Shown here: one piece after another, positions 20,326 to 58,188 of the stretch
Layout: each line of letters starts with the position of its first letter
Numbering within the stretch: the stretch's first letter is position 1
From: an uncultured Flavobacterium sp.
GTDB taxonomy: Bacteria > Bacteroidota > Bacteroidia > Flavobacteriales > Flavobacteriaceae
Assembly (NCBI GenBank): GCA_963511795.1
Contig: CAUPKP010000013.1
Span: forward strand, 9,279 to 73,278
Reading direction: 5' to 3'
DNA: 64,000 nucleotides
The notes under the pieces: model-generated
Told to the model about the DNA's origin: nothing
The model's database searches: none
What the model saw: only the letters and a program-made list of their open reading frames with translations
Position numbers and translations under genes: made by a program

Positions 20326-20694
20326 ATGCTTAAAAAATTAAACGAGATAAATACAAAAAAAAAATGTGAAAAAACTGCGAATGCTATTTTGATATTGTTG
20401 ATTCTTCATTTACTTTTTGTTTTTTTAATTTATTATTCTACAGCATTCATTTATGAAAATCCTTTTATCCCAAAATATTTAGCTTTTGAAATTTTTGCTC
20501 CATATGCAAGAAAAGGAGTTATTTTAACCCTTGGAGTATTGATAGCTACAATATTGAAAATGTTCAAGCAGAATTTATTCTTAATTTTAGTTTGCGTACT
20601 TTCTATTTCAATATATTATCTTACGAATTTTGAGCCTGATTTTACAGATTATAAGAAGTTAAAATCTGAATACCGAACAAAGGCAGTAAAATAA
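20326..20694 (+). CDS. AT-rich hypothetical membrane protein (about 3 TM)
   Basis: 122 aa ORF filling the gap between genes; hydrophobic segments. Confidence 0.55.
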   Translation: MLKKLNEINTKKKCEKTANAILILLILHLLFVFLIYYSTAFIYENPFIPKYLAFEIFAPYARKGVILTLGVLIATILKMFKQNLFLILVCVLSISIYYLTNFEPDFTDYKKLKSEYRTKAVK

Positions 20695-22680: not shown

Positions 22681-23358
22681 TTAAGCGTCTAAATCCAAAC
22701 CAAAAGTGGTTCGCAATAATTCAATATTTGGATTTATTTCCAATAGGCGATTGTAGCGGTCTTGATCGGTAAAGCTTCTTTTGATGTCTATGCTTTCATT
22801 GACGGCCACTTCAATAGTAATGTCGTGATTGTGCAAATGACCGCGCAAGTGTCCCAAAAGACCAATCATTTCCTTTTCAAAATCTAATTTAGAACCTTCG
22901 TTGGGTAATTCGAAGGTGATTTTTGTACCGTTTAGTTTCGGATCATTAATTAGCAATAAGGATTCCATTATTTTATATCCTTTACTTCCAAGACGTTCTG
23001 CATATTTTGTCCATTGCAGAAGCATTTCGGTTTCTGTAAATGATTCAGTTGGAAGTATAGTGTTGTCTTCTTTAACAAATCCTTTTAAATTTTCTTCTAA
23101 AGCTTTTTTAGCTCGAATACTGGAAAGTGATAATGCTGAAAACTTGGTTTCGTTGCTTGGAGGAGCTGAAACTACTGGATTTGGAGTTTTCGGTTTTTCC
23201 TCTATTGGTGCAACAGGTTTAGCAATTTCAGTGTTTGAAACTGTTTTTGGAGTTTCTGGAGTAACAGGAATTTGGCTTTTCTCTTTTGAAACTTCAGCTA
23301 TCGAATAATCTGCAGTTTTTCTAAAATAAGTGGGTGGAATTATAAATTGCTCAACTTT
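22681..23358 (-). CDS. dnaX: C-terminal part of DNA polymerase III tau, reached by a -1 shift from dnaX
   Basis: The -1 frame is open from the A10 run (KVEQFIIPPTYFRK...P/T/E-rich linker...EMLLQW) to the stop at 22681; the track's 114 aa ORF is its distal end. Confidence 0.8.
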   Translation of the reverse strand, partial: KVEQFIIPPTYFRKTADYSIAEVSKEKSQIPVTPETPKTVSNTEIAKPVAPIEEKPKTPNPVVSAPPSNETKFSALSLSSIRAKKALEENLKGFVKEDNTILPTESFTETEMLLQWTKYAERLGSKGYKIMESLLLINDPKLNGTKITFELPNEGSKLDFEKEMIGLLGHLRGHLHNHDITIEVAVNESIDIKRSFTDQDRYNRLLEINPNIELLRTTFGLDLDA

Positions 23359-24425
23359 TTTTTTTCTCCATCATAAGAGATAGAGGCAAGCTGCATTAAG
23401 CAAAGTTCGACAAGCAGTCGCTGATTCTGGCTTGCTTTGTATTTTAAATCGCAATCATTTGCAATTTCGATTCCTTTTAATAAAAAGTCCTGACTGCATT
23501 TTTGGGCTTGAATTCCATACATTTTTTGAGCTTGCTCGCCAACTTCCAATAAAACAAGGGTTGAAGGTGTTTTGCTTACCAATAAATCTCTGAAATGACT
23601 GGCTAATCCAGAAACAAAGTGATGGCTGTCGAAGCCTTTTGCAAGAATATCATTAAACGCCATCAATAAGTCCGGGATTTTATTTTCCAGAATTAAATCG
23701 GTAACATTTATGTATGTTTCGTAATCTAAAACATTTAAGTTCTCGGTAACAGCCTGACGGGTTAGGTTATTTCCGCAAAAAGAAACCACTCTGTCAAAAA
23801 TAGACAAAGCATCGCGCATGGCGCCATCTGCCTTTTGGGCAATAATATGAAGCGCGTCATCTTCAAAAGCGACTCCTTGACTTGTTGCAACATCGGCAAG
23901 ATGTTCTTTAGCATCTTTTACGGTAATTCTTTTGAAATCAAATATCTGGCAACGCGATAATATCGTTGGTATAATCTTGTGTTTTTCGGTGGTTGCTAAT
24001 ATAAAAATGGCATGTTTTGGCGGTTCTTCCAATGTTTTCAAAAAAGCATTAAAAGCCGCAGAAGATAACATATGCACCTCGTCAATGATATATACTTTGT
24101 ATTGTCCTGTTTGTGGAGGAATACGAACTTGATCAATTAAATTTCGAATATCATCTACGGAATTATTAGATGCAGCATCGAGTTCGAATACATTAAAAGC
24201 AAAATCTTCATTTGGATCATCATATCCTGGCTGATTTATTTTTCGAGCCAGAATACGGGCGCAGGTTGTTTTTCCGACACCACGAGGACCTGTGAATAAA
24301 AGAGCTGAAGCTAAATGATTGCTTTCTATGGCATTAAGTAAAGTATTGGTAATCGCTTTTTGTCCCACCACATCTTTAAATGTCTGGGGACGATATTTAC
24401 GAGCCGATACTACAAATTGTTCCAT
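23340..24425 (-). CDS. dnaX: DNA polymerase III subunit gamma/tau, zero-frame (gamma-length) product
   Basis: ARKYRP, GPRGVGKTT, ELDAASN, IIDEVHML, TILSRC; ends DGEKKKLSNL* at 361 aa. Confidence 0.97.
   Translation of the reverse strand: MEQFVVSARKYRPQTFKDVVGQKAITNTLLNAIESNHLASALLFTGPRGVGKTTCARILARKINQPGYDDPNEDFAFNVFELDAASNNSVDDIRNLIDQVRIPPQTGQYKVYIIDEVHMLSSAAFNAFLKTLEEPPKHAIFILATTEKHKIIPTILSRCQIFDFKRITVKDAKEHLADVATSQGVAFEDDALHIIAQKADGAMRDALSIFDRVVSFCGNNLTRQAVTENLNVLDYETYINVTDLILENKIPDLLMAFNDILAKGFDSHHFVSGLASHFRDLLVSKTPSTLVLLEVGEQAQKMYGIQAQKCSQDFLLKGIEIANDCDLKYKASQNQRLLVELCLMQLASISYDGEKKKLSNL
23356..23365 (-). other. Slippery site: A10 run containing in-frame A_AAA_AAG
   Basis: Minus strand GGA GAA AAA AAA AAG TTG AGC AAT TTA TAA. 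Confidence 0.75.
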
Positions 24426-33459: not shown

Positions 33460-33692
33460 AGATAATTATTAAAAGTTTTAGAGAAGGTCAGTGCAGTTAT
33501 CTAGTTAGCTAATATTAAATACAAATTCAACTAAAGGTAAAAGATAAACAGATATAGGTTCTATAAAAATTCTATTTTACATAATATAAATTATAGTTCA
33601 TTTTATATAACATAAAATAATGGCTAAAATGAGTAATTTATTCAATTGATGATAACTACATCGTTTTGTCTCAAAATAATTTTTTTTTTATT

Positions 33693-58167: not shown

Positions 58168-58188
58168 TTTAAAAAAAAAATAAAAACC

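Follow-up and report, generated by a model that had tools for sequence, protein, structure and literature searches.

A conserved run of ten adenines splits dnaX in Flavobacterium and probably supplies tau through transcriptional slippage

In the genome of an uncultured Flavobacterium sp. (GenBank assembly GCA_963511795.1, contig CAUPKP010000013.1, positions 9,279 to 73,278 of the forward strand; this whole stretch of 64,000 nucleotides is referred to as the window), the zero frame of dnaX encodes the short product gamma and appears to leave the full-length product tau dependent on recoding at a run of ten A residues (A10; T10 on the plus strand). Through its binding to the polymerase core and to the helicase, tau acts as the organiser of the replisome. 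Based on the comparisons described below, we consider it probable, at roughly 70%, that tau is made mainly via programmed transcriptional slippage at the A10/T10 run, with gamma as the default product. The reversed layout of dnaX with an A10 run has been known for the genus Flavobacterium since 2013 (PMC3711429); what seems to go beyond the literature found in a limited search is the hairpin next to the run, the presence of stops in each of the two other frames and the fact that the locus has switched between A10 and A11 more than once. The features of the locus, in coordinates of the window, are as follows.

23340–24425, minus strand: zero-frame open reading frame (ORF) of dnaX, gamma-like, 361 amino acids (aa) with AAA+ domains I–III and the tail LSNL (ORF calls, Pfam, NCBIfam).
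23356–23365, minus strand: A10 homopolymer (T10 on the plus strand) at the gamma/tau boundary, the slip or shift site (sequence).
23355–23361, minus strand: heptamer A_AAA_AAG in phase with the zero frame, with AAA in the P site and AAG in the A site (sequence).
22681–23355, minus strand: tau-specific part in the −1 frame, 224 codons plus TAA (22681–22683) (translation).
23351–23353, minus strand: TGA in the +1 frame directly past the run, which would end the product of A9 or A12 transcripts with EKKKS (third-frame translation KKKS and stop).

The gene starts with an ATG at 24425 on the minus strand, and its zero frame ends with ISYDGEKKKLSNL (the C-terminal stretch is also written LMQLASISYDGEKKKLSNL) before the TAA at 23340–23342. 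At the DNA level this end reads GGA GAA AAA AAA AAG TTG AGC AAT TTA TAA, which places the stop four codons past AAG and five codons past the last all-A codon. The −1 frame reads KKKVEQFIIPPTYFRK past the run and is open as far as the TAA at 22681–22683. It begins with VEQFIIPPTYF, continues with a disordered linker rich in P, T, E and K and ends with a folded C-terminal domain (approximately 22684–23037). Joined at the A10 run, the gamma part and the tau-specific part amount to 581 aa. The original prediction, which was made from the letters of the DNA, had described a zero frame ending at 361 aa just past GAA AAA AAA AAG, a −1 frame open for about 225 codons with a product of about 581 aa, and a site that is both an A10 homopolymer and an in-frame A_AAA_AAG heptamer; re-reading of the sequence confirmed each of these points. 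It had also stated that standard ORF calls miss the linker, and indeed gene callers report an ORF of 361 aa and a startless ORF of 225 codons. Its central claim, that gamma is read from the DNA-encoded frame whereas tau relies on recoding at A10, is supported by profile coverage, by the absence of start codons and by conservation, including the comparison of the site across relatives that it had proposed. It had allowed for either ribosomal −1 slippage or transcriptional slippage, and the comparisons below lean towards the latter.

With regard to profile coverage, the 361-aa ORF matches the Pfam families DNA_pol3_delta2, DNAX_ATPase_lid and DNA_pol3_gamma3, and it scores 382 bits against the NCBIfam model TIGR02397 (dnaX_nterm). 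More informative for the split is NF011531, the NCBIfam model of full-length DnaX, which has 614 positions and a cut-off of 685 bits. The 361-aa ORF covers positions 1–370 of this model and alone reaches 615 bits, which is below the cut-off, and the −1-frame part covers positions 415–614 (E 3e-22). For comparison, the continuous homologue P0002 (581 aa) covers positions 1–614 with 692.7 bits and thus exceeds the cut-off, and relatives with a single-ORF dnaX of 586–587 aa exist. Since both ORFs map onto one full-length DnaX model, we count the split as real, and judged by these profile matches the −1-frame part is the true C-terminus of DnaX. A Pfam search with the tau-specific part gave no match in the library version searched; PF28557/DUF8439 is among the precomputed matches of full-length DnaX homologues. 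In an AlphaFold model of the tau-specific part, the linker has a pLDDT below 50 and a C-terminal alpha/beta domain has a pLDDT of 70–89. A fold search with this model returned weak matches only (E 0.015 to 0.5), namely DciA as the best (E 0.015) and DnaA domain I, which is suggestive of a small KH-like replication-protein domain and falls short of proving tau domain V.

The closest relatives of the source genome are Flavobacterium sp. A45 and F. aquicola. Among named Flavobacterium genomes, the A10 run with the C part in the −1 frame was found in 77 of 80, and the other 3 carry A11 and a single continuous ORF. In a survey covering 401 species of the genus, the open frame of the C part was just 214–262 aa long in 149 of the best 150 matches. 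The C part is preserved as a protein throughout the genus, and internal stops in it were rare, with one stop each in 2 of the 150 genus matches and in 1 of 36 in another listing of relatives. The A_AAA_AAG heptamer is in frame in every A10 sequence of the genus.

The two ORFs reported by gene callers could also come from a truly split gene whose C part is translated separately, or from a decaying tail that persists as a pseudogene remnant. In the window, however, the tau frame contains no ATG, GTG or TTG before 23025, the first possible start, and none of the 101 unique A10 sequences of the genus has one of these codons within the first 11 codons of the tau frame; in 85 of the 101 there is none within the first 50. 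At the same time, these first 11 residues, VEQFIIPPTYF, are strongly conserved as protein in the genus while the codons vary synonymously, as seen for the Pro codons. The conservation of this peptide together with the lack of a start codon indicates that it is translated by ribosomes coming from the upstream ORF. As the C part is moreover stop-free in nearly every listed species, we regard a separately translated or decaying tail as practically negligible.

Stop codons next to the run are preserved as well. Past the run, the zero frame runs into a stop in 101 of 101 unique genus sequences, and the +1 frame does so directly past the run in 99 of 101. The zero-frame TAA arises from the tau-frame codon 5, an Ile codon which is ATA in 101 of 104 sequences, and the +1-frame stop arises because in 99 of 101 the first tau codon has T as its last base and GA or AA comes next. 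To judge from these codon choices, the stops in both non-tau frames are actively maintained.

These data also bear on the question of whether the A10 is a homopolymer error of sequencing or assembly, the true genome having A11 and a continuous ORF. Runs of ten are error-prone, a pectate lyase–pectinesterase gene that is intact in relatives is also frameshifted in this draft, at an A9 run, and one metagenome-assembled genome (MAG) shows A11 where its near-identical isolate, a close relative, shows A10. Nevertheless, the same A10 and frame break recur in 77 of the 80 named genomes, which were sequenced independently, and, with complete genomes among them, in the large majority of the genus, the codons past the run keep stops in both non-tau frames, as in the case of ATA, and the same A10 has been published for two Flavobacterium species. 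We therefore give this explanation next to no weight. Judged by the pattern of conservation as a whole, the split is real and under selection, and the arrangement is fixed in the genus Flavobacterium.

A further explanation would be phase variation at the DNA level, in which slipped-strand mispairing during replication generates a subpopulation of A11 cells that supplies tau. A10 and A11 alleles do occur among close relatives. However, tau is the essential dnaX product in E. coli, and as every cell needs tau, a population could not live with nearly all of its genomes "off" for an essential subunit. Together with the prevalence of A10 in the named genomes, this makes phase variation very unlikely.

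Beyond the genus, we drew a phylum sample of 161 genomes and fetched 40 dnaX junctions, of which 26 are split, with tau out of frame, and 14 are continuous. A run of A9 to A11 is located at the gamma/tau boundary in all 40 loci, no matter whether tau is in frame. In the 14 loci with tau in frame the run is A10 or A11 in all but one (range A9–A11), and in the phylum loci (40) both non-tau frames stop within 9 codons of the run, with one exception of 16. On the basis of this sample, the conserved element is the A run and not the frame configuration. In line with this, other Flavobacteriaceae genera have a continuous dnaX that still carries A10 or A11 with the same hairpin upstream (L151, L152).

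The frame itself has changed more than once. The three Flavobacterium genomes with A11 and an in-frame tau belong to three separate clades, which requires a minimum of 3 changes, and an approximately unbiased (AU) test rejects a single clade (p 2e-53). The locus L175 has its frame restored through a 1-nt indel downstream of an intact A10, and a group of database DnaX proteins reads EKKNDFIIPP, which implies a frame-restoring event like that of L175. In L176 and L177, the run is A11 with the C part in −1. According to these comparisons, the run has stayed in place through several changes of the reading frame. That some orthologues need one shift direction and some the other is easier to reconcile with a polymerase that both adds and drops bases than with a −1 slip of the ribosome, and the need for both directions among orthologues was used by Antonov et al. 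as a criterion for transcriptional realignment (PMC3711429).

Several individual loci deserve mention in their own right. A11 with a continuous dnaX is nested among A10 relatives, in separate clades, in L097 (F. polysaccharolyticum N6), L109 (Flavobacterium sp. ST-87), L114 (Flavobacterium sp. P3160) and L040 (a MAG scaffold); these are either natural flips to a Thermus-type layout, with tau in frame, or homopolymer errors. The tau part lies in the +1 frame, the direction opposite to the rest of the genus, in L024 (G010:C1, same genus), which has A12, and in L026 (G035, another family), which has A11; each is a single genome and may reflect an assembly error. L180, from a 76%-complete MAG, has an apparent need for +1 with A10 and was set aside, since it is probably due to an upstream assembly error. 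In a Chlorobi-like family with genomes of 2–3 Mb (f32; L130–L147, L158–L160), split (approximately 400 aa) and continuous (620–720 aa) dnaX genes are mixed, and the fetched loci all have A9 or A10, followed by GCC/GCA...TGA.

The second element that accompanies the run is a potential RNA hairpin on its 5' side.

23366–23385, minus strand: hairpin abutting the run on its 5' side, CTCTATC (23385–23379), loop TCTTAT and GATGGAG (23372–23366), 7 bp (folding, codon entropy).

In most relatives the hairpin consists of CTCTATCA, the loop CTTT and TGATGGAG, with 8 bp. The upstream segment has a mean minimum free energy (MFE) of −8.5 kcal/mol (z −2.8). At columns with conserved amino acids, the codon entropy is 0.08–0.64 bit over codons −7 to −1, compared with a mean of 1.09 bit more than 12 codons upstream. 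The Ala column within the hairpin is GCC in 99 of 100 sequences, whereas another Ala column shows GCA in 53 and GCC in 44; similarly, the Ile column of the hairpin is ATC in 102 of 103, and the other Ile columns compared are mostly ATT. The Leu codon −8 next to the hairpin is fully free (1.92 bit). The synonymous sites are frozen exactly across the hairpin arms. Over 41 distinct sequences, 97.9% of the cells are paired, compared with 26–62% when the partner is slid, and a hairpin of −5 kcal/mol or lower that ends in the last 2 nt was present in 71% of 56 unique upstream 30-mers but in only 3.2% of 3542 control windows taken from these genes; both counts come from sequences that are not phylogenetically independent and are indicative only. 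In other families and in the deeper branches of the genus, the arms differ in sequence but occupy the same position, namely CGTCTTT/GAAGGCG, CGTCTCT/AGGAGACG, AGCTTCCG/CGGAGGCT and CCTGCAG/CTGCAGG.

A hairpin directly 5' of a slip motif has been reported to stimulate slippage of RNA polymerase in Roseiflexus IS630 (Penno et al. 2015, as summarised in PMC5009743). According to that summary, the Roseiflexus case resembles the site described here in its terminator-like geometry, with a hairpin of the nascent RNA immediately 5' of the slip motif; it differs in its T5C5 motif and in residing in a transposase gene, whereas here the motif is A10 in a core replication gene and the role of the hairpin is putative.

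The mechanism that we propose would operate as follows. When the T10 template is copied, the whole RNA:DNA hybrid of 9–10 bp would consist of rA:dT, and the transcript may realign, which would leave a fraction of the mRNA with A11 (or A8 or A14). Ordinary translation of such A11-type mRNAs would yield tau, reading GEKKK-VEQFIIPP across the junction, A10 mRNAs would yield gamma ending in EKKKLSNL, and A9 or A12 mRNAs would yield a second short form ending in EKKKS. The conserved hairpin, which ends at the base before the run, would probably form in the nascent RNA and modulate the frequency of realignment. A smaller share of tau may come from −1 slippage of the ribosome on A_AAA_AAG. Bacterial RNA polymerase is known to slip efficiently on A/T runs of at least 9 (PMC5009743). 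We favour transcriptional slippage because the run, both stops and the 5' hairpin are kept whichever product is in frame.

The most serious alternative is that tau is supplied chiefly by programmed −1 frameshifting of the ribosome on A_AAA_AAG, i.e. that the chemistry of E. coli dnaX operates with swapped outcomes and the mRNA remains A10. The E. coli dnaX −1 frameshift cassette combines A_AAA_AAG with an SD-like (Shine–Dalgarno-like) element upstream and a stem-loop downstream. The likeness to E. coli comprises the same gene, the in-frame heptamer and a sole tRNA-Lys(UUU). The differences are that the outcome is reversed here, that the site is a full homopolymer of 10 nt and that neither stimulator has a counterpart. 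RNAalifold returned no downstream consensus structure for 101 sequences (0.0), and the segment from +4 to +48 has a mean MFE of −2.0 kcal/mol (z +0.49) and folds worse than its shuffles. No SD-like element lies about 10 nt before the heptamer; the sole GGAG ends 3 nt before it and is part of the 3' arm of the hairpin. By its sequence anatomy, the site does not fit an E. coli-type frameshift cassette.

In addition to the missing downstream stimulator and the misplaced GGAG, several points speak against the ribosomal route. An upstream hairpin adjoining the shift site was reported to attenuate −1 ribosomal frameshifting (as described in PMC6321510), and such a hairpin is present here. The run is kept in the 14 phylum loci with tau in frame, where no shift from the heptamer to tau is needed, and some orthologues require the opposite shift direction. 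Finally, a ribosome does not require a homopolymer as long as 10 nt, and RNA polymerase is bound to slip on one of this length. Taken together, we consider ribosomal frameshifting as the main route unlikely, although it deserves far more weight than the error, phase-variation and split-gene explanations.

A number of observations nevertheless weigh against transcriptional slippage, and some of them speak for the ribosome. The heptamer is in phase in all A10 sequences of the genus, and the sole tRNA-Lys found is UUU, both by ARAGORN in this draft and in five complete relatives, which have two or three tRNA-Lys(UUU) copies each. A BLAST search of these five genomes with the UUU gene detected no tRNA-Lys(CUU), the next matches being only Asn, Met and Ala tRNAs, in a search that a highly divergent CUU gene could escape. 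A lone tRNA-Lys(UUU) makes AAG shift-prone in E. coli, and Thermus is the opposite (PMC5009743). The bare dnaX heptamer gave approximately 14–16% −1 shifting in vitro with E. coli components (bioRxiv 10.1101/2025.10.02.679949), and the review by Atkins (2016) words the reversed dnaX as ribosomal frameshifting, with E. coli-like signals in one Chlorobium (PMC5009743). On the transcriptional side, the A11 transcripts are inferred from comparative anatomy. The hairpin case of Roseiflexus, as summarised in PMC5009743, involves the loss of one base, whereas tau here needs the gain of one (or a −2 deletion). The hairpin arms are nearly invariant within the genus and covariation is thin, with 2 pairs doubly changed in one sequence each. 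Furthermore, the A12/+1 locus and some of the A11 cases are each known from one genome and may reflect homopolymer errors. Our estimate for transcriptional slippage given at the outset takes these points into account.

As for the tRNA set of the draft, it comprises 41 tRNAs, in which C at the wobble position occurs only in tRNA-Met (CAU) and tRNA-Leu (CAA), and tRNA-Lys only as UUU. The draft lacks tRNA-Trp, Ile-GAT and Ala-UGC, which are probably located in unassembled regions.

Compared with published systems, the closest match is the two-ORF dnaX described by Antonov, Coakley, Atkins, Baranov and Borodovsky in 2013 (NAR 41:6514, PMC3711429), who found 17 such genes, distributed over 12 genera; the run is A10 in nine of these genes. 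Supplementary Figure S3 of that paper shows F. johnsoniae (AAAAAAAAAAGTTGAGCAAT) and F. psychrophilum with the shared motif AAAAAAAAAAG(T/C)T, and it also lists Cytophaga, Capnocytophaga, Chlorobi and Coraliomargarita. In that study transcriptional realignment was proposed from the Thermus analogy with the poly-A motif aligned, and dnaX was not among the tested constructs. The locus described here agrees with theirs in the gene, the boundary, the A10 and the assignment of gamma to the zero frame and of tau to the −1 frame; only the species differs. It likewise has an ORF with DnaX domains I–III that ends a few codons past the poly-A, a C part in −1, and a break whose position and direction are conserved.

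In Thermus thermophilus, dnaX undergoes programmed transcriptional slippage on A9 (Larsen et al. 2000, as cited in PMC5009743 and PMC3711429). The similarity consists in the A homopolymer at the gamma/tau boundary, which here as well comprises at least 9 A/T, in close stops in both non-tau frames and in one gene giving two products. The difference is that in Thermus tau is DNA-encoded and slippage makes gamma, which is reversed in this Flavobacterium, and that Thermus has two tRNA-Lys species while only tRNA-Lys(UUU) was found here. The in-frame relatives with A10 or A11, i.e. other Flavobacteriaceae genera and some Chlorobi-like genomes, have exactly the Thermus layout.

Other homopolymers in the genome were inspected as well. 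The window contains further A/T runs of 10 nt at 20355–20364, 33680–33689 and 58171–58180. Genome-wide, 91 runs of 10 were counted compared with 68 expected from composition, i.e. they are about as frequent as expected, and most are located outside long ORFs. Outside the window, an A9 run on contig C4 (C4:210899–210907) separates two ORFs, a pectate lyase ORF with a signal peptide (Pfam Pec_lyase, 1.9e-108) and, in the −1 frame, a pectinesterase ORF (Pfam Pectinesterase, 1.2e-76) that lacks a start codon. In five relatives the orthologue is a continuous ORF of 665–691 aa, and the run is not conserved. We rejected this split as a programmed site, since it is not conserved; it has the appearance of a recent frameshift or of an error in the homopolymer, and slippage may partly rescue it. 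The other ORF pairs at A/T runs of at least 9 in the genome are neighbouring genes, namely a nadE-like gene with a response regulator, a SusC/SusD pair, and an ORF of 147 aa beside one of 434 aa, apparently a relaxase/mobilisation gene that has its own start codon.

In the genus Flavobacterium, an essential replication protein thus hinges on a deliberate decoding "error". For the annotation of these genomes, the split means that gene callers truncate DnaX to 361 aa and leave a startless ORF of 225 codons, a point that is already in the literature. The gain from the comparison is that, throughout the phylum and regardless of which product is in frame, the A run comes with stops in both other frames and with a hairpin next to it, which provides a concrete candidate for a stimulator. 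If both products come from a mixture of transcripts, lineages could flip freely between tau in frame (A11, or A10 with an indel) and gamma in frame (A10) without losing either protein. More tentatively, with somewhat less than even confidence, we propose that the hairpin, an A run as long as the full hybrid and stops in both other frames form a cassette that would be conserved in dnaX across Bacteroidota, including the Chlorobi-like lineages, and in which the hairpin would set the realignment rate and hence the ratio of tau to gamma. If true, dnaX would provide the first case of transcriptional slippage tuned by a stem-loop in a cellular gene that is essential.

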